Made by a program: the position numbers and the translations under genes
The notes under the pieces: generated by a model
What the model saw: the letters and a program-made list of their open reading frames with translations, nothing else
Database searches by the model: none
Told to the model about the DNA's origin: nothing
Virus genome (UHGV): UHGV-0069399
Direction: 5' to 3' (one strand)
Source: a virus
DNA: 49,013 nt
Part shown: piece after piece, positions 2,023-35,661 of the stretch
Position numbering within the stretch: the first letter of the stretch is position 1
How the letters are laid out: each line of letters opens with the position of its first letter

Positions 2023-2256
2023 TAATTATGGTCACATCTAATTACTTTACATAGATACCCACTAGAAAGGGGACTTTTCTTAAAACTCAGCCGTCAAAGA
2101 TTTAGAGTGGTTATCTACTGGTATGCTTCCGAATCTGCCAGTGCGGCTGAGTGGATTTCTAGTACCCTCTAGAAGATTTAGTTGATTAAAACAGGTCATG
2201 TATCATCTTCAGAGTCAACATATCGCCAACTGTCTATCATTCCATTGAGGAAAAGT

Positions 2257-3030
2257 ATGTCATCAGAAAATTTTGTCACCTTCTGGCTCGCTAGAGCCGA
2301 TCTTCCATACTTTCTTGAACCTCATGAATTTTACGTTTCGGAGGCCAAGCGTAGACTTCTATCGCAGTTTGGCGATTTAGAACAAGAAGCAGAAAGGAGG
2401 GAACAACAGTATTTGGAAGCTACCTCAAAATATTTCGATCCTGATAACGATGATCCAATGGCTGCCTACGAGCAAGCCTACCACGTGGGAATTAATTATG
2501 TATGGTCGCTTCTGGAGATGCAAAATACCGTGTTGTTGGCATTAACGGCAGGAATGTACCACCAGTTTGATAAAAAACTAAGAGAACACACCATCAAAGA
2601 ACTAAGTAACTGGTGCAAAAGAGAATTAATTACTCCCATGATCTGGAATATAACTTTCCATCAGCTTATTGATTTACTCGAATGGATTGGCCTCAAAATC
2701 AATGGAACCGGATACGGAGAGAGGATCAAAGCCTGTAACTTGGTAGTAAACGTATACAAGCATGGGGACGGGCCTGCGCATCAAACACTATCATTCAATC
2801 ATCCTGAGTACTATCAACACCCTACCGATGTTCGAGGTACGCAGAACATACATGACCATGATGATTTACATGTATCAGAAGAGCAATTTGTAGAGTTTGC
2901 TGACGCAATAACTGAATTCTGGAAAGCAGTTCCAGAGAATTGCTATTACTCAGATCTCAAAGAAGAACCCAAATGGTTGAGTAAAGTCGTAACAAAATTC
3001 GATAAAAAACAGAAGGGAAATAGGGACTAA
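2257..3030 (+). CDS. hypothetical protein, AT-rich islet gene B (~257 aa)
   Basis: ORF in AT-rich DNA; ATG at 2257 (MSSENFVTF) is preceded by GAGGAAAA at RBS spacing. No family recognised. Confidence 0.6.
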   Translation: MSSENFVTFWLARADLPYFLEPHEFYVSEAKRRLLSQFGDLEQEAERREQQYLEATSKYFDPDNDDPMAAYEQAYHVGINYVWSLLEMQNTVLLALTAGMYHQFDKKLREHTIKELSNWCKRELITPMIWNITFHQLIDLLEWIGLKINGTGYGERIKACNLVVNVYKHGDGPAHQTLSFNHPEYYQHPTDVRGTQNIHDHDDLHVSEEQFVEFADAITEFWKAVPENCYYSDLKEEPKWLSKVVTKFDKKQKGNRD

Positions 3031-3318: not shown

Positions 3319-3708
3319 TCACATCACTGGGCAGTCATCAAACTCCGCGTTCCTGGCATCATTAATGATGTACGTGATAACACCAAATATTGCGTGTGAA
3401 GAATTATAGCCATCACCGTCTTCTGGCAGCACTTCTCTTCTCCCGTTCTCCAGATTTATCAGGTGGGGCTGAGGGTGAGTTCGGTATCGCTTGATCCTGA
3501 ATTCCCCATCTATCGCGCATATCAGCAGCGAGCCATCACAGGCTGAAAGCGACGCGTCCACAACAAGTAGTGCCCCCTGGATTATCCCTTCCCTGAAATG
3601 TGAACACGATGCCCGCATGAAATAAGTCGCTGCGGGCTGGCTGATTAGCTGTTGATCGAGGGAAATCCTTGTTTCAACGTAATCACTGGCAGGTGAAGGG
3701 AAGCCCAT
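3319..3708 (-). CDS. UmuD'-like protein (LexA/S24-fold, begins at the cleavage-site Gly; catalytic Ser apparently replaced)
   Basis: Translation from ATG 3708 (MGFPSPASDYVE...ATYF...LLVVD...IDGEFRIKR) aligns along its length with E. coli UmuD from Gly25 (GFPSPAADYVEQ...), as recalled from memory. GGAGG RBS 8 nt upstream of this ATG; ATG lies 2 nt after the stop of the upstream small ORF. The ORF-track start at 3807 would overlap that ORF by ~97 nt. Confidence 0.7.
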   Translation of the reverse strand: MGFPSPASDYVETRISLDQQLISQPAATYFMRASCSHFREGIIQGALLVVDASLSACDGSLLICAIDGEFRIKRYRTHPQPHLINLENGRREVLPEDGDGYNSSHAIFGVITYIINDARNAEFDDCPVM

Positions 3709-3710
3709 GG

Positions 3711-3953
3711 CTATAGTCCTCCGTTTGGATTGAAAAGCTGAAAGGTACGGTTCTCCCCTTCCTGCGTTGATACATCGCGGAATGATGTCACATACCACTC
3801 GATCCATTCGTTAGCCTGCTTCATCGTCCAGTTCCAGTTAACCTTGCTCAGTTCCTGGACAAACCGCTGTGTGGTGACGGTCTTCCGGCCATTAGGTTCT
3901 TGCTGTATCGAAGCATGCCAGGCCATTTCAATATCGCTGCGTCGTGGCATCAA
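3711..3953 (-). CDS. hypothetical small protein (80 aa), first gene of the LexA-boxed operon; candidate SOS-induced regulator/antirepressor
   Basis: GAGGGG RBS ~7 nt upstream of ATG 3953; LexA box 40 nt upstream; tightly coupled to the downstream UmuD'-like gene. No family recognised. Confidence 0.5.
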   Translation of the reverse strand: MMPRRSDIEMAWHASIQQEPNGRKTVTTQRFVQELSKVNWNWTMKQANEWIEWYVTSFRDVSTQEGENRTFQLFNPNGGL

Positions 3954-5980: not shown

Positions 5981-6008
5981 AAAAAACCCGCCGGAGCGGG
6001 TTATTTTT
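5981..6008 (-). terminator. rho-independent terminator (bidirectional hairpin) downstream of the Cor-like gene
   Basis: ACCCGC-cgga-GCGGGT hairpin flanked by an A-run on one side and a T-run on the other. Confidence 0.5.
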
Positions 6009-6014
6009 GGTATT

Positions 6015-6254
6015 TCATTGAGGGCAATTCGAACTGGTGAAATTATTTTTATTCACCCATCGCCAGTTAAAGGGATAACCGGCCCTGTACTCAGTCTGAT
6101 TAACAACTTTTTGCACACCGTAAATTTGCACTGACTGGGGCTGTCCACCAAGCACTAACTCAGCCTGACAAACCGGTTTCTGTTTCTCCAGAACAGGTCC
6201 TGAACAGGCTGAAAGCACCAGGCAGACAATAACTGGAATAATTATATTTTTCAT
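6015..6254 (-). CDS. small lipoprotein, Cor-like (putative superinfection-exclusion protein)
   Basis: 79 aa; signal peptide with lipobox LSAC; AT-rich gene between J-associated genes and the side tail fibre, the position of cor in phi80/N15/HK022-type phages. Family call is by size and position, not alignment. Confidence 0.55.
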   Translation of the reverse strand: MKNIIIPVIVCLVLSACSGPVLEKQKPVCQAELVLGGQPQSVQIYGVQKVVNQTEYRAGYPFNWRWVNKNNFTSSNCPQ

Positions 6255-6362
6255 TTCGATACCAGAGTTAATTATTTAAACAAAAAATAACCAATGGCAT
6301 TGAATAATAAAAATAGTTTTAATAGATCAATATTCTAAAATTGATCGTTTAAATCGATCAGT

Positions 6363-7037
6363 TTAATCATATGCAGCTGTGTTTATCGCCGTTATCACAA
6401 TTCCACTATTTGTCGTACCGATTGAAGAGCCGCTTGCTGTTGTTGATGTAAGTCCTTTTATTCTCGTTCCCGCACCTTCATTGAAGCAACCTGTACCCAC
6501 ATCCACAGACTGAATGATTGGCTGTCCACCAGGTGCCGAACCAGCATGAAGGAGAACAGATCCCAGCCCCATCGGATTTATGGCCCATTTGCCTGCCATG
6601 TATGTATCAATGTTAAGCCCACCACTTACAGCACCTGGTGAACCAATAGTTGTAAGGTCGCTTAATACCCGGGACTCATTCGTAAGTACCAGTGTCCCTT
6701 CGGCATCCCATATAGCCACCCCCCAGGCAGGAAGCGTAAGCGGATATATGGCAAAAAAATAGGCCTCAAGGACAAAAGCCGATCCCCTGTAATTAGACGC
6801 ATTAACACTGAACGTATTGCCACTTTTTGAAGCTGATATCTTCGCCGGGGCGCTGGTTCGTGCAAATGCAATCCCTCCCTTCTGACCGTCGATAGTAACA
6901 GACGCCGAAACACTGTTAAAATTCCCCCCAAAAGTTGAGTTTACAGTGACTTTCCGGTAAAGCGTCATTGGTGTGGAATCAGGCGTGATAAAAGGGTTCC
7001 CGTTAGGTAATGAAATCAATGCGCCATATTTAGCCAT
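6363..7037 (-). CDS. hypothetical tail-associated protein (224 aa) downstream of J
   Basis: Tightly packed after the 104-aa ORF and J; Gly/Ser/Thr-rich, fibre-like composition. Confidence 0.6.
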   Translation of the reverse strand: MAKYGALISLPNGNPFITPDSTPMTLYRKVTVNSTFGGNFNSVSASVTIDGQKGGIAFARTSAPAKISASKSGNTFSVNASNYRGSAFVLEAYFFAIYPLTLPAWGVAIWDAEGTLVLTNESRVLSDLTTIGSPGAVSGGLNIDTYMAGKWAINPMGLGSVLLHAGSAPGGQPIIQSVDVGTGCFNEGAGTRIKGLTSTTASGSSIGTTNSGIVITAINTAAYD

Positions 7038-13267: not shown

Positions 13268-14881
13268 ATGAATATTGTGCATTATGCAGCCATTGGAGCT
13301 GTAGCTTTCGTAGTTGTTCTAACAATTTTGGTGATAAACATCATTAAATTAAAGTCAGCCAAGGCTGATGCAGCAGAAAAGGCGGCAAAACTTGAGCGTT
13401 ACGCGTCAATCACCAATGCTGAAACAGAAGCTGAACGAATCGTGAATGCAGCTAAGCAAACCGCAGAAGAGTTAATTATTGATTCGCAGAATAACCTTGA
13501 CGAGGCAAAAGCTGAAGCAGCCAACACTATTGCAGCCAGTGAAAAAGATGCAAGATCTATAACACAGCGTGCGGAGGATATTCTATCAGATGCGCGTTTA
13601 GCAGCTAAGCGAATGAACGCAGAGGCGCTGACCGCTGTAGAAACACAAAGAGTCAAGCGTGCAGAAATTGAAAAACAGATTGATGAATTGCGTAAATCCT
13701 ATCGTGAGAAAAAAATCACTTACGATGAGCTGACGGAAGCCCTGTCAATTTATAAAGATGATATGGAATTTGCTGACATGGGGTTCTATGCACCACACTT
13801 CGATTTTGATACCTCGGCTAGTTTTCAGGATGCGATCAAGGCATGTCGCGAACGGCAAAAAAATCTGCTACGTGACAAAACTGAATTTGGCGCAATACAT
13901 TGCCCTACTGAATGGACGGTTGGCGGCTCTAAAAGTGAAGGTCGGAAAATGACCACTCGCGGCATTCAGATGACAGCACGTGCATTCAATGGTGAGTGTG
14001 ATGCAGCTATTGCAAACTGCACATTTAAAAACGTTTATCAAATGGAGCAAAGAATTTATAAAGCCTTTGATGCCTTGAATAAGATGAATGAGGTTAACCA
14101 GATTTACATCAATCGTGCTTTTTTAGATTTGAAGCTGGATGAACTTCGACTTACACATGAATATCGTTTGAAAAAACAAGAAGAACGAGAAGAACAACGT
14201 GAAATCCGCGCTCAGATGGCTGAGGAGAAGCGAGCTCAAGCCGAAATTGATCGTGCACTTCGAGAGGCTGAAGATGAAGAACGCCGCGCCCAAAAAGCGT
14301 TGGATAAAGCCCGAAAAGAAATGGAATCGAAGCTAGCCCAAATGACAGCTGAGCAAGTTGAGAAACACCAAGCGAAGGTATCCGAATTAGAACATGCCTT
14401 AGAAGAGGCATTGTTGAAAGGCCAAAAAGCTCTTTCTATGGCTCAACAAACTAAACGCGGCCACGTGTACGTTATCTCTAATATTGGTTCGTTTGGTGAT
14501 GATGTTTTTAAAATAGGAATGACACGTCGACTTGACCCTCAAGATCGAGTGGATGAACTGGGTAGTGCATCAGTCCCATTCCTGTTCGATGTTCATGCAA
14601 TGATTTTCAGTGAAGATGCACCAACAATGGAAAACATGCTCCACCAGCGTTTCAATGAGCAACGCACTAACCTAGTTAATAAGCGTAAAGAGTTTTTCAA
14701 TGTAAAATTAAGCGATATCAAAGATGCTGTGTTTGAGATCGCAGGTAAAGATGTAGATTTTATCGAAACAGCAACTGCTCAGCATTATTATGAAACAAAG
14801 GCAATTCGTAAGCAGAAAGCGGATATCATTTCAGTTGTTCCTCAAGAGGAAAAACTACCTAAATTTGCGGACGCAATATAA
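13268..14881 (+). CDS. membrane-anchored coiled-coil protein with DUF4041-like core and C-terminal T5orf172 (MUG113, GIY-YIG-like) domain; inserted accessory gene
   Basis: 537 aa on the opposite strand to the flanking tail genes. N-terminal hydrophobic helix (AAIGAVAFVVVLTILVINII), long charged coiled-coil stretches, C-terminal GHVYVISNIGSFGDDVFKIGMTRRLDPQDRVDELG...FNVKLSDIKDAV matching the T5orf172 signature. Own AT-rich promoter region and terminator. Confidence 0.85.
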   Translation: MNIVHYAAIGAVAFVVVLTILVINIIKLKSAKADAAEKAAKLERYASITNAETEAERIVNAAKQTAEELIIDSQNNLDEAKAEAANTIAASEKDARSITQRAEDILSDARLAAKRMNAEALTAVETQRVKRAEIEKQIDELRKSYREKKITYDELTEALSIYKDDMEFADMGFYAPHFDFDTSASFQDAIKACRERQKNLLRDKTEFGAIHCPTEWTVGGSKSEGRKMTTRGIQMTARAFNGECDAAIANCTFKNVYQMEQRIYKAFDALNKMNEVNQIYINRAFLDLKLDELRLTHEYRLKKQEEREEQREIRAQMAEEKRAQAEIDRALREAEDEERRAQKALDKARKEMESKLAQMTAEQVEKHQAKVSELEHALEEALLKGQKALSMAQQTKRGHVYVISNIGSFGDDVFKIGMTRRLDPQDRVDELGSASVPFLFDVHAMIFSEDAPTMENMLHQRFNEQRTNLVNKRKEFFNVKLSDIKDAVFEIAGKDVDFIETATAQHYYETKAIRKQKADIISVVPQEEKLPKFADAI

Positions 14882-14899
14882 CATTTCAATGACAAATTT

Positions 14900-14926
14900 A
14901 AGGGCGGTTTTTAATCGCCCTTTTAT
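14900..14926. terminator. bidirectional rho-independent terminator between the convergent inserted genes
   Basis: AAGGGCG-gtttttaat-CGCCCTT hairpin with T-rich flank. Confidence 0.6.
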
Positions 14927-14941
14927 GTTAAAAGTCATTAG

Positions 14942-15424
14942 TTACATGTTTTTGTAATAGCCGACTTTAGAATCAAAGTCCTGTTTTGCGAGTGGCGTTT
15001 GGCTTGTCACATAAGTCTCCCAGGAGCTGTACGCCTCTACGAGCGCGCGCTTTTCTTCTGCATCCTTAGTACTCGATTTCATTATTTCAAACACTCCAGA
15101 AGCATTCTCTTTGCGTTTGTTTTTTCTGTTAGCGCCGCAAGTCGCTATTGCATCGGCTACAGAATTATTCCACCCAACCAACTGCAGGATCTCCATTCTC
15201 TTTTGAATCACGAACTGATCCGCAGACGCATTCCGTGCCTGAGTCGACAGGTATTCAGCAAACTCCATTTTGTTCATTGGCACTTTGGAGACTGACTCAA
15301 TATTTACGTCACACTTCGAAAGCTCATCATACTTGGCTTGTTTTTGCGCGTTGTTGACTGGACCATTGCCCGCGCACGCAGAAAGAGCCATTGCTAACAC
15401 CACTGTCGTGAAGACCTTTTTCAT
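14942..15424 (-). CDS. lipoprotein (~160 aa), inserted accessory gene between tape measure and gpM
   Basis: Signal peptide plus lipobox LSAC; start chosen at ATG 15424 (MKKVF...) with GGGGA RBS; AT-rich. Confidence 0.75.
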   Translation of the reverse strand: MKKVFTTVVLAMALSACAGNGPVNNAQKQAKYDELSKCDVNIESVSKVPMNKMEFAEYLSTQARNASADQFVIQKRMEILQLVGWNNSVADAIATCGANRKNKRKENASGVFEIMKSSTKDAEEKRALVEAYSSWETYVTSQTPLAKQDFDSKVGYYKNM

Positions 15425-15524
15425 TATCATCCCCTGATTAGTATGGTTTTGACATAATAACCATGGGAGGCATCGGTGTAACCAGGTACGGGTTATATTG
15501 CCATATCAGAATTTACGACGATGC

Positions 15525-31632: not shown

Positions 31633-31988
31633 GATTATTCACCAAGTGATCAATATCTATTATCGTAAGGAGGAATAACGTGTATTTTACAAAGTTTGTA
31701 TTTTTATGCTCAGAGCGTAACCATGATCATCGAAGAAGCTAGAGGCTTTTTATTTCAACAAGGTATGCTGGAAGAATGTGTTAAACATCCTATTTATATA
31801 ATTAACGGAAGTACGGATAAGCAGGATGACCCAGTGGTTTTATCTGAATATCTAATCATGATAAATAGCAACGGGGACACCATTGCTGGGCGTTCACCAA
31901 ATAGTCAATGGAGCATGTACCCCATCGCTATTAAAGACACGCACCCTAATATAACAAGTCATCTGCACGCTATAACTATCCCATAATT

Positions 31989-32549: not shown

Positions 32550-33118
32550 AATACCCCCGGAACTGATACCGGAATGCCTGGGTTAAGCGGCCCGAGCCCA
32601 TCACCAAGAACCTGCGGTTTTTCTGCCCACAGGCAAACTTCACGCTCAATCTCACGCCGGGTGATTAAACCCTTCCACTGTTTGCCACCGGCATATGTCC
32701 AGCGCCGTAATTGTTCGCAAGCCCCTTTTGTGTCGCCCAGGTTGATTTTGCGTAGCAGCGTGGAGGTTTTGAAGTTGCCAGCACCGACGTTGTACGCGAA
32801 TGAGTAAAGTGCACCCCGCATTGTTGCCGGGATCGGAACCTTGATGTAGGGGTCAATCTGACGTGCGATGGTATTCAGATCTTTTGTGAGCAGAATGGCA
32901 CACTCTGTCTCGGTGTACGTCTTCCCGATTTTGACGTCGCTGCCAGTGTGCCCGTAGCATACCGTCCAAACCCCAACTACATCCCGATAAGGCTGATAGC
33001 GCACACCTTCAAGGCCATCATTACCCGTTGGACCAATAATCAACGCCGCTGCGATAGCAATAGCGCCAGCGGGTATAGCTGCAATAACGCTATTCTTCAG
33101 CTTTGGTGGCATAGCCAT
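32546..33118 (-). CDS. SAR endolysin (T4-type lysozyme, GH24) with N-terminal signal-anchor-release domain
   Basis: Hydrophobic Gly/Ala-rich N-terminus ([22 protein letters not shown]) followed by a lysozyme catalytic region ([23 protein letters not shown]); overlaps the holin stop. Confidence 0.85.
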
Positions 33119-33368
33119 TGCGCCGATCCTCCCGTTCTTTCCAGCGGAAATACCAGTTCACTGCACAGGTAATAACTGTGCATGCGATACCGACAATAAT
33201 TGCCCAGTCGCTCAGGCTTAACCCTGCAATTCTGTCGGCCAACATCCAGGACACCTCTTTTGCTGTTTTAGCTGTTTCGGCATATGCCTTCGCTGATACA
33301 CCGCAGCCGGTCAGCGTGGTTCCTGTTCCATATGAAAGTCTGCTGTAAATGGTGCTCATTCTGGTCAT
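33090..33368 (-). CDS. holin (pinholin-like, phage 21 S-type, dual-start MTRM)
   Basis: GGAGGTGAGG RBS upstream of ATG 33368; two transmembrane segments; C-terminal [13 protein letters not shown] resembles the S21 pinholin tail; pairs with the SAR endolysin. Confidence 0.75.
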
Positions 33369-33479
33369 AGCCTCACCTCCGATTTTTCGGATGGCGCTGT
33401 GTGTGATGAAAGGGTCAGGCTTCACGGGCTGGATTTATCAACAAAGCACGTAGTAATTGATTCCCGTGAGCCTGAAATG

Positions 33480-33503
33480 AAAAAGGCCGCCATTTGGCAG
33501 CCT
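33480..33503 (-). terminator. possible terminator (tR'-like) between the lipoprotein gene and the lysis cassette
   Basis: 8-bp stem with one mismatch (AGGCTGCC / GGCGGCCT) and a short T-run on the minus strand. Confidence 0.35.
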
Positions 33504-33748
33504 CGAAAAAAAATAAGATTGTTTAAATCGACATATTAAGTGGATTACCAAAAACCTCTGACATAGCGATAAGACAAATGATGTCGCTATAAGTAACATG
33601 TCATATACCAACGACTGATTTTCCTTTCAGCCTCCTAACAGAGGTATCCGTGCAATGCGCTATCTGAATAGCTCATCACGTACGATACAGCAACATTCTT
33701 CTGTATTAAAATCTATGAAATGAGCAACTGATAATAGTGGTTCAAATA

Positions 33749-33994
33749 CTATCGGCATGAAGCGCTGGTACTGCATTGTAGTGTATCAGTAGGCACCCAT
33801 TTACCATTGCTACATACGAATTTCTTCACTCCAGGAAAACCACCTGAAGTTGCACACGTATAGCATTTCTCTTGCCCATTTACACATGCAGATTGTATTT
33901 GGTTGGGTGATTTATCAATTGTGGAAGAGTTTGTGCTGCATGCTGATAGAAAAAACGCTGATAAAACAGTGGAGTAAAAAATTATCTTATGCAT
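33749..33994 (-). CDS. Cys-rich small lipoprotein (81 aa), gene between Q and the lysis cassette
   Basis: Signal peptide with lipobox LSAC; six further Cys in the mature part; embedded in ~700 bp of AT-rich DNA. Confidence 0.7.
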   Translation of the reverse strand: MHKIIFYSTVLSAFFLSACSTNSSTIDKSPNQIQSACVNGQEKCYTCATSGGFPGVKKFVCSNGKWVPTDTLQCSTSASCR

Positions 33995-34199
33995 TTTTTA
34001 TACCTTCATAAGATTATTAATATTATATATTTATCATTATAGGCGCCTTTAAAAATCCTTCCAACCGACATTCAGAATGCTTTTTCTTACTCTCCAGAAA
34101 CGCAAAAACCCAAGGCGTCAACCTCAGGCTTGAAAACTCATTTACTGCCAGTGCATACAACAATGGCACAATATCAGATTTACACGAAATATATCCATT

Positions 34200-34889
34200 T
34201 CAGTTCGGTTTTGCAAGACTTACATCCAAATTTGTCGCCTTTTGTTGTGAACGTGATCGCGAAACAGAAAGGAGCGCCTGATTATCAAGGTGCACGAATT
34301 CTTGTTTCATCGCCAGCCAGTGCGGGAGGTAGGTTTCAGTCCAAGTTGGCTTTGATACCCCTACCAGTTGCGCCAGCTGCTGGTACTCGTATGTGCTGCG
34401 CCCTGCTAGTTCTGCTTTCACATCCTGAGCAGCAAGCCAAATTAACGCCTTCAACCGTTCGATGGTTTTACCAGCTATCTTTCGAGACCCCATCTGCGAC
34501 TTGAATTCAGCCCACGCCCACTGAGTAATCAACACCTGACTCTCCCAGCTTACGTTCTCGCTGTAGTTCCACAGTAGCCAGGCCTTCTGGGGTTCTTCAA
34601 GTGACATCAGCGCCCGGCGCCACGATGCGGTGTAGAATTCTACCGGCTGCACCAGGGGAATATGTGAACCCTTGGCATGCGACTGTTTGCCCGGTATTGG
34701 TGGGTTATCCAGCGTAATCATTTTCCCGGTCACTTCATCATACACACGGAGCTTCTTACGTTTAAACGTTCCCGTATCAAACTGGGCGTTCTCAAGCCAC
34801 GCCATCAACTGCCCTTTCGTCGCACCACTTAAATCGGCGGTGGCCACCATCAGCTGCTGGCGCACGTATTCGAGAAATTGAGTGTTCAT
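34200..34889 (-). CDS. putative late-gene antiterminator (Q-like)
   Basis: 229 aa at the Q position (after the nin-like region, before the late promoter and lysis genes). Call is positional; the sequence is not lambda Q-like. Confidence 0.5.
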   Translation of the reverse strand: MNTQFLEYVRQQLMVATADLSGATKGQLMAWLENAQFDTGTFKRKKLRVYDEVTGKMITLDNPPIPGKQSHAKGSHIPLVQPVEFYTASWRRALMSLEEPQKAWLLWNYSENVSWESQVLITQWAWAEFKSQMGSRKIAGKTIERLKALIWLAAQDVKAELAGRSTYEYQQLAQLVGVSKPTWTETYLPHWLAMKQEFVHLDNQALLSVSRSRSQQKATNLDVSLAKPN

Positions 34890-35019
34890 ACAGTACCGCC
34901 TATGGTTTTAATGTAGTTCTTCAGTATTCGGTAGTCCGTCAGCACAGAGCCGGGGAAATGGTATAAGCGCAATCGCTGCCAGCGAACGCGGAGGTGATCG
35001 GCAAGGTAGGTTTCGAATG

Positions 35020-35661
35020 TCACACTGCCTCCTGTTTTCTTGGGCCGACATACTCGCCATATAAAGGCGCTCTACCTCGTGCCTTCGTGTGCCGATGAGT
35101 TACCTTTGGTGAAAACAATGCATCTTCCACACTCATTCCTTGCTTCAGGCGTAGCTTGATTGTGTTACCAGCTACAGAAACCCTAGGGTCCCTTGACCAT
35201 TCGGTAGCTGTTTTTGTTTCTCCAGAGAACGTAATTCCGGTTCGCCCTTTTTTGGTATGTTCTGGAATGTGAACCCGAGATCGCATGACATTGCATGCAC
35301 GACAAAGAACCCTCAGATTTGACTCGTCATTGTTGTCCACAACCTCATCAATGTGATCGATATGCACCGTCTTCCATGTGACAGTCTTTCCGCATTTCTC
35401 ACACGGAGGTAGCGCCTCGCCATGTCGGTCATAGATAACCTTCCGATGCTCATAAACGAACCCATTCGCCATTACCAACGGATGATCTGGCATCTTGAGC
35501 ATCTGGTAACCCTTACCATTCCTCTGTCTGGTCTTTCCCTTTCCAACTTTTGTAAGTTCGTAGGTTCCGTAGCGCATCATCCTGAAGTAATGCATTTGAC
35601 AGATGCCCTTTCCCGGGTAGTGCTTGCATTCACGATCACAACCTTCAACTTTGCATTTCAT
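35020..35661 (-). CDS. HNH endonuclease
   Basis: N-terminal Cys cluster (CDRECKHYPGKGICQMH) and HNH core HIDHIDEVVDNNDESNLRVLCRACN. Confidence 0.8.
   Translation of the reverse strand: MKCKVEGCDRECKHYPGKGICQMHYFRMMRYGTYELTKVGKGKTRQRNGKGYQMLKMPDHPLVMANGFVYEHRKVIYDRHGEALPPCEKCGKTVTWKTVHIDHIDEVVDNNDESNLRVLCRACNVMRSRVHIPEHTKKGRTGITFSGETKTATEWSRDPRVSVAGNTIKLRLKQGMSVEDALFSPKVTHRHTKARGRAPLYGEYVGPRKQEAV

Follow-up and report, generated by a model that had tools for sequence, protein, structure and literature searches.

The concept of the phage moron goes back to Hendrix and Juhala, and a well-known case in lambdoid phages is that of the Stx phages, which carry stx between Q/pR'-tR' and the lysis genes. 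Here we analyzed the corresponding slot of virus genome UHGV-0069399, a stretch of 49,013 nucleotides (nt) which as a whole is referred to as the window, and found in it an AT-rich insert encoding an 81-amino-acid (aa) Cys-rich lipoprotein precursor. Similar to the lambdoid morons stx, HK225 gp66 and mEp237 gp56, this insert adds an extra gene between conserved neighbours, deviates in GC content and carries its own promoter-like site and terminator; as in the other slot morons of lambdoid phages, it lies downstream of tR', which would also place it under Q control. In contrast, the encoded protein shows no relationship to the moron products described so far. The element is of a familiar type, and its product is an orphan that is very rarely encountered. 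We regard it as very probable that the feature is a moron encoding an outer-membrane lipoprotein.

Lambda Bor/Iss is likewise a moron-encoded outer-membrane lipoprotein beside a lambdoid lysis cassette, as is predicted here. Lambda Bor is expressed from the prophage, is encoded downstream of Rz on the opposite strand, has 97 aa and forms a defined Pfam family, and this Pfam family gave no match to the lipoprotein in the window. Llp of T5 (directed at FhuA), Cor of the phi80/N15/HK022 type and Rtp45 (directed at LptDE) share with the lipoprotein described here a precursor of ~77-81 aa, a signal peptidase II (SPII) signal, outer-membrane sorting, a Cys-containing mature domain of ~6-6.6 kDa and their phage origin (PMC9586334, PMC12685063). 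The structurally characterised exclusion lipoproteins bind the periplasmic side of FhuA (Llp) or of LptDE (Rtp45) (PMC9586334, PMC12685063). Compared with Llp, Cor and Rtp45, the lipoprotein in the window has six Cys rather than two or three, and its gene lies away from the receptor-binding genes.

The elements of the slot and its two borders, in the order in which the late strand is read, are as follows.

34889-34200, minus strand: Q late antiterminator of the phage-82 type, 229 aa (PF06323, E 2e-100; phrog_304, E 3e-101)
34216-34188, minus strand: candidate late promoter pR', TTGCAA-17-TATATT (consensus scan)
34131-34096, minus strand: tR'-like intrinsic terminator, an 11-bp hairpin and a T-run (terminator scan)
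33505-34091, minus strand: putative moron insert, 587 bp, 35.4% GC
34064-34036, minus strand: candidate sigma-70-like promoter of the moron, TTGGAA-17-TATAAT, matching at 10 of 12 positions (consensus scan)
33994-33749, minus strand: predicted prolipoprotein open reading frame (ORF), 81 aa, the only sizeable late-strand ORF between Q and the holin
33505-33748, minus strand: 3' untranslated segment of the insert, 244 nt, from the lipoprotein stop codon to the terminator
33504-33474, minus strand: intrinsic terminator GGCTGCC-AAAT-GGCGGCC plus TTTTT at the 3' junction of the insert (terminator scan)
33368-33090, minus strand: class II holin (P21/HP1-type holin families), 92 aa, with an MTRM dual start

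The whole late region of the phage, consisting of Q, the slot and the lysis cassette, is encoded on the minus strand, with Q as the upstream border of the slot, the holin as the downstream border and 830 bp between them. GC content drops to 31-41% in this interval, and the insert has the deviating composition expected of a moron when compared with the whole window (50.3% GC) and the flanks (~52%). The insert begins 5 nt past the tR'-like terminator and ends at the second hairpin and T-run terminator, before the holin leader. On the Q side, positions 34092-34200 match E. coli prophage Q modules at 94.5%, and on the holin side positions 33430-33503 match the region upstream of the holin in HK225, mEp237, Gifsy-2 and Klebsiella phages. 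Pairwise BLAST placed the junctions at 34092-34078 on the Q side and at 33502 (HK225) or 33488-33485 (others) on the holin side. The segment between the junctions (33505-34091) was unmatched in 50,697 phage records, 72,556 plasmids and 5,426 E. coli genomes, even by distant-mode blastn with 11-mers, and is known only from this phage, from one IMG/VR locus (L003) and from one 627-bp contig in ENA. HK225, mEp237 and the E. coli prophages share the flanks without the insert, which is the presence/absence pattern of a moron between conserved genes.

An earlier, sequence-only reading of this DNA had already placed late-region cargo of the moron kind in the gap between Q and the holin. Indeed, the AT-rich block is there on the minus strand, the flanks end at about 34092 and resume at 33502/33488, and four unrelated genes occupy the slot elsewhere. 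These are gp66 of HK225 (136 aa, opposite strand), gp56 of mEp237 (213 aa), a 171-aa gene in E. coli prophage L005 and a 165-aa gene on the opposite strand in E. coli prophage L006. None of the four products is related to the lipoprotein, belongs to a Pfam family (0/4) or has a signal peptide (0/4). Because the same Q/holin flanks hold four other unrelated genes, the Q/tR'-to-holin junction in this lambdoid group is, on these alignments, a defined site of gene exchange, and the lipoprotein gene is no conserved accessory of lysis; such an accessory was the outcome that the earlier reading had set against its own proposal.

The genes downstream of the holin complete a cassette which by its predicted products is of the pinholin/signal-arrest-release (SAR) endolysin/Rz-Rz1 kind.

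33118-32546, minus strand: lysozyme with an N-terminal hydrophobic SAR-like segment, after the holin
32549-31989, minus strand: Rz of the lysis cassette
32260-32114, minus strand: Rz1 lipoprotein of the lysis cassette, embedded in Rz

Holin DNA is 93-95% identical to the holins of HK225, mEp237 and the E. coli prophages; the holin ORF is open upstream to a GTG at 33425, and the length of 92 aa is that annotated in HK225 and mEp237. As the first gene of the late transcript, lying directly 5' of this cassette and with a product destined for the same compartment, the lipoprotein gene might be a lytic-cycle helper, expressed only from pR' with Q, whose product tunes lysis by buffering the SAR endolysin or spanins or protects from lysis from without. 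However, phages with the same Q and 93-95% identical holin/endolysin DNA carry unrelated genes instead, and a full holin/endolysin/Rz/Rz1 set exists without the lipoprotein, making such a role very unlikely. An o-spanin of the Rz1 type was rejected, as the gene is upstream of the holin, the protein is neither Pro-rich nor provided with a partner, and a separate Rz1 is embedded in Rz.

Alignment of the sequences upstream of the holin revealed that same-strand cargos end in a GC-rich stem fused to a common T-run, CTTTTT(C/T)ATTTCAGGC. The stem before this T-run is GGCTGCC/GGCGGCC in the window and HK225, GCCCCG/CGGGGC in mEp237 and AGCCCCGG/CTGGGGCT in prophage L005, and prophage L006, with its opposite-strand cargo, has no stem there. 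The retention of this terminator with differing stems ahead of one T-tract in three other phages is support of the compensatory type for its function and argues that termination before the lysis genes is being maintained; the terminator likely keeps transcription of the cargo out of the holin in the lysogen. The junction of stem and T-run, at the start of the holin leader, would double as a recombination joint. In the window, the hairpin itself (33504-33483) has 9 bp, of which 6 are GC, and is followed by TTTTT and a 114-nt leader to the holin. The terminator-like hairpin claimed by the sequence-only reading is therefore present, but it stands ~245 nt past the lipoprotein stop codon rather than immediately after the gene.

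The 3' segment between the stop codon and this hairpin carries an SD-like AGGAGG (SD, Shine-Dalgarno sequence) with no start codon at the proper distance, and a nested hairpin (TGACAT..ATAGCGA..TCGCTAT..ATGTCA) whose fold is suggestive at most (z = -2.2). A 57-codon hydrophobic ORF starting with TTG (33611-33438) was judged probably spurious, as it runs through the terminator into the leader common to other phages. An Rfam scan of the slot together with Q and the holin gene (33000-34900) detected no family.

At the other end of the slot, the pR' candidate straddles the Q stop codon, with its -35 hexamer in the last Q codons and its -10 hexamer just beyond the stop. The tR'-like terminator, ~80 nt downstream, is the last conserved element ahead of the insert; it is 80-94% conserved in HK225, mEp237 and the E. 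coli prophages, and homology ends at 34092-34078. This promoter-like site and hairpin would be the expected pR'/tR' pair of a Q module. The IMG/VR locus keeps both pR' hexamers and the 17-nt spacing (TTGCAG-17-TATATT), though the intervening sequence and the Q C-terminus diverge, and a T to C change in its tR' stem turns a G-U pair into a G-C pair. The two sequences are 98% identical from the pR' -10 hexamer onward and divergent over the last ~40 nt of Q and around the -35 hexamer (34195-34236), a pattern pointing to a recombination breakpoint inside the late promoter with hexamers and spacing kept.

Within the insert, the candidate sigma-70-like promoter starts 32 nt past the T-run of tR' and is the top-scoring sigma-70 match in 33000-35000, a region where 6 such sites were found against 2.8 +/- 1.6 expected. 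Its spacer contains a partial palindrome, TTTAAAGGCGCCTATAA, and a second TATAAT lies 8 nt further downstream; in the IMG/VR locus the -35 hexamer is TTGGAC and the second -10 hexamer gains an upstream TG. An inverted repeat around the ribosome-binding site and start codon was considered as a riboregulator and dropped, its fold being no better than that of shuffles (z = -0.5). The anatomy suggests a horizontally acquired, self-contained AT-rich unit, made up of promoter-like site, SD, one gene, 3' untranslated region and intrinsic terminator, that would have entered the genome exactly where tR' of the Q/pR' module meets the lysis-cassette leader. In the lysogen, the gene would be transcribed at low level from its own candidate promoter, with transcription stopping at the pre-holin terminator, and after induction it would be strongly transcribed from pR' by Q-modified RNA polymerase reading through both terminators.

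The predicted product of the unit has the sequence MHKIIFYSTVLSAFFLSACSTNSSTIDKSPNQIQSACVNGQEKCYTCATSGGFPGVKKFVCSNGKWVPTDTLQCSTSASCR. Its N-terminus, MHKIIFYSTVLSAFFLSAC followed by STNSS..., comprises a signal peptide (aa 1-18) with the lipobox LSAC, Cys19 and Ser at +2. In Enterobacteria, Ser at +2, with no Lol-avoidance Asp, follows the rule for outer-membrane sorting. The lipobox rule of the PROSITE PS51257 type demands an N-terminal positive residue, an uncharged hydrophobic stretch and [LVI][ASTVI][GAS]C with the Cys at position 15-35, and the phage protein conforms to it with MHK-IIFYSTVLSAFF-LSA-C19, in which K3 precedes an uncharged h-region. The signal peptide is followed by an S/T/N-rich tether (aa 20-36) and a 45-aa domain with six Cys including a CxxC motif, so that the mature part holds six Cys beyond the lipidated Cys19, at 37, 44, 47, 61, 74 and 80. 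The earlier claim of an 81-aa Cys-rich lipoprotein was thus correct at the sequence level, and the protein has every sequence feature of an outer-membrane lipoprotein. We propose that the precursor would be a Sec substrate with Cys19 as the lipidated residue, that Sec/Lgt/Lsp/Lol would process and sort it and DsbA oxidise it, and that the mature product would be a tethered, beta-rich domain of 6.6 kDa. AlphaFold2 (AF2) without an alignment gave a predicted local distance difference test (pLDDT) score of 56 for the full length and 69 for residues 36-81, and both models contain a three-stranded antiparallel sheet (42-47, 55-62 and 65-74).

An ATG ORF of at least 81 codons arose in 2.5% of insert shuffles, a figure that ignores the signal peptide, SD, promoter-like site and terminator. 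A chance or decaying frame in hitch-hiking AT-rich DNA that is silenced in the lysogen, in other words an inert passenger, would agree with this frequency, with the lack of homologues beyond near-identical copies, with copies too alike to show selection and with an AF2 confidence that is only moderate. However, the frame begins with a textbook SPII signal ending at Cys19, has an SD (GAAGG at 34007-34003, read from the sequence) 8 nt ahead of its ATG, stands between a near-consensus promoter candidate and a terminator and is unbroken in all three sources; of the three substitutions that separate it from the IMG/VR copy, two are synonymous. An inert passenger is therefore quite improbable, and the ORF was taken as a real gene because a well-placed signal, SD, promoter-like site and terminator accompany its length.

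Searches of Pfam, PHROGs, NCBIfam and PADLOC returned no family above noise for the lipoprotein; the best was DUF6006 (E 0.05), which stayed under its cut-off, and at E <= 0.1 the only PHROG matches were unrelated ones to signal peptides. DUF4969, the label on public record DAZ53678.1, was not listed by hmmscan at E <= 0.1 or at E <= 10. A word-indexed search of 5.8 billion clusters retrieved only the protein itself, in a cluster with a single variant (I26F, P54S) from the 627-bp ENA contig. Two additional hits from an exhaustive HMMER search of 1.84 billion representatives were rejected as artefacts, being giant repeat proteins with scores summed over 8-14 near-identical repeats and with unaligned Cys. 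JGI metagenomes held no match to the lipoprotein. In GTDB genomes, the sole match was a Pasteurellaceae lipoprotein, which was taken as signal-peptide similarity. This 192-aa lipoprotein of Spirabiliibacterium falconis (NZ_JABMIJ010000011.1, 6004-6582) matches the phage protein only in its N-terminal AFFLSACST-SS-IDK; as the insert is low in GC, the likeness could reflect a low-GC donor, or equally convergence of signal peptides.

IMG/VR contained one genuine second occurrence, the locus already mentioned, which is 98% identical from the pR' -10 hexamer through the insert to the holin start and differs within the lipoprotein ORF by two synonymous changes and one non-synonymous change (P54S). 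It is a different mosaic, in which NinG and Rz are not those of the window, the Q C-terminus has diverged and the HNH gene is absent; because it nevertheless has the same insert, the insert travels with the holin module. The lipoprotein is a very rare orphan, with three near-identical copies in all collections searched.

The family searches also bear on a role as a periplasmic inhibitor or immunity protein that neutralises a lysozyme, a bacteriocin or a type VI secretion system effector in the manner of MliC/PliC or immunity lipoproteins. Inhibitors of this sort typically have a compact and basic domain that is stabilised by disulfides and anchored in the periplasm, as the sequence suggests here, but neither Pfam nor NCBIfam revealed similarity to MliC/PliC, Ivy or immunity families, and there is no adjacent cognate toxin gene. 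Such an inhibitor is quite improbable. The toxin analogy drawn in the sequence-only reading found no support, since the protein is predicted to be membrane-anchored and no toxin family matched it.

One lead came from phmmer, in which the mature protein searched against PDB ranked complement factor H and the CCP-like HpARI first (CCP, complement control protein or sushi module), with whole-sequence E values of 2e-4 and 8e-4. The likeness rests on the motif Y-x-C-x3-G-x2-G-x5-C-x-N-G-x-W-x7-C, and three shuffles preserving the Cys positions gave no CCP hits by phmmer. The best single-module E values were 1.5-2.4, the whole-sequence scores being summed over several modules. We further scored the protein with a profile built from 25 genuine modules (PDB alignments) and compared it with 40,000 shuffles. 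Its score of 4.0 bits was equalled by 401 of 20,000 free shuffles (2.0%) and by 919 of 20,000 shuffles with fixed Cys (4.6%). A CCP module is recognised by a length of ~60 residues, four Cys paired C1-C3 and C2-C4, a conserved Trp and agreement with the profile. Membership was rejected here: the profile P is ~0.02-0.05, the N-terminal half of the module is missing and Pfam Sushi did not match. At the C1 position the protein offers no Cys other than Cys19, the residue predicted to be lipidated. It is extremely unlikely that the six-Cys domain would be a degenerate, bacterially adapted sushi-like module, displayed or released by lysis, that interferes with host complement or another host receptor as a phage-borne mimic of a vertebrate immune regulator, and neither fold searches nor the profile test lent support to a sushi-like module.

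More generally, the lipoprotein might serve the lysogen as a host-interaction or fitness factor, expressed from its own promoter in the prophage and altering serum/complement survival, adhesion or envelope stress resistance in the Bor/Iss manner. In lambdoid phages, Stx and other conversion genes occupy the Q-to-lysis slot, which counts for such a factor, as do the candidate promoter of its own with a terminator insulating the lysis genes, the annotation of the source record as a human-associated virus from a metagenome-assembled genome (MAG) and the weak motif-level likeness to complement-control modules. On the other hand, neither the Bor family of Pfam nor any virulence family matched, the CCP likeness failed the profile test, and the gene, at three near-identical copies across all collections, is too rare to suggest a virulence trait under broad selection. 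We consider a factor of this kind unlikely.

Our best overall explanation, put forward tentatively, is a moron unit with an envelope-level exclusion lipoprotein. An exclusion role is favoured because the precursor size, the lipid anchor and the ~6-kDa domain equal those of Llp, Cor and Rtp45, and the phage itself supplies a precedent for an exclusion lipoprotein in the same genome.

6015-6254, minus strand: Cor superinfection-exclusion protein, 79 aa (phrog_1119, E 4e-26)

As an envelope-level conversion factor, the lipoprotein would bind the periplasmic face of an outer-membrane protein, and the masked receptor would be unusable by competing phages or by progeny phage meeting cell debris. Receptor masking as the specific mechanism of exclusion is possible by analogy, though doubtful. 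The presence of Cor suggests that the phage uses FhuA; cor sits in a GC-poor patch (38%), flanked by the tail fibre gene and a phi80 gp23-like gene.

Several points weigh against an exclusion lipoprotein expressed from a moron of its own. The protein has no sequence similarity to Cor, Llp, Rtp45, Bor or any family: the profile of the Cor family did not match it, BLASTP against the Cor of the window aligned the signal peptide only, and comparison with the solved structures of T5 Llp and Rtp45 detected no sequence or fold similarity. With Cor already present beside the tail genes, blocking of the phage's own receptor is already covered. Genes for exclusion lipoproteins usually adjoin receptor-binding genes and not the slot between Q and the holin gene. 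The other slot cargos look cytoplasmic, so that function cannot be predicted from the slot. AT-rich DNA abounds in promoter-like hexamers and is frequently silenced by H-NS. Finally, the insert copies differ at only ~2% of DNA positions, which is too little to assess purifying selection.

If the lipoprotein is indeed an exclusion factor, the few phage lipoproteins that act on outer-membrane receptors from the periplasm and disable them would gain a new sequence family, and the target of this lipoprotein could point to a further receptor used by phages. If not, it joins the orphan moron products, as one that is very rare in public data and gives no direct hint of toxicity or virulence. Of wider use is the swap-site result, in which same-strand cargo ends in a hairpin and a shared T-run that would insulate the lysis genes.

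In the rest of the window, the structural genes are 82% identical to those of coliphage HK639 and early-region identity to E. coli prophages is 83-91%; by its gene sequences the phage is a lambdoid temperate siphophage, and its host an Escherichia-like enterobacterium. The Q gene has ~90% DNA identity to E. coli prophage Q genes. Between NinG and Q, the window carries a gene for a 213-aa HNH endonuclease (35020-35661, minus strand). This gene is probably a mobile insertion of the homing type, since neither the IMG/VR locus nor the E. coli prophages that share this Q have it at that position. Directly 3' of Rz, at the position of lambda bor, an AT-rich 96-aa ORF lies on the opposite strand (31696-31986, plus strand), which matched no Pfam, PHROGs or PADLOC family and is not a lipoprotein.

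At one end of the window, a gene for an SOS-response associated peptidase (SRAP, 50-721) is followed by low-GC genes at 952-2022 and 2182-3030 (36-40% GC) and, beyond these two, by a UmuD-like gene (3319-3807); no integrase or tRNA gene was seen. Several further low-GC islands are present in the window, suggesting that the phage is rich in morons. Besides the slot product, the window encodes three lipoproteins, namely Rz1, Cor and a 162-aa protein in a low-GC island (38-45%) inserted within the tail gene cluster (13268-15430). In this island, the 162-aa lipoprotein (phrog_8179) adjoins an opposite-strand 537-aa protein with DUF4041 and T5orf172/MUG113 (GIY-YIG-like) domains, and the pair may be a defence or exclusion moron.

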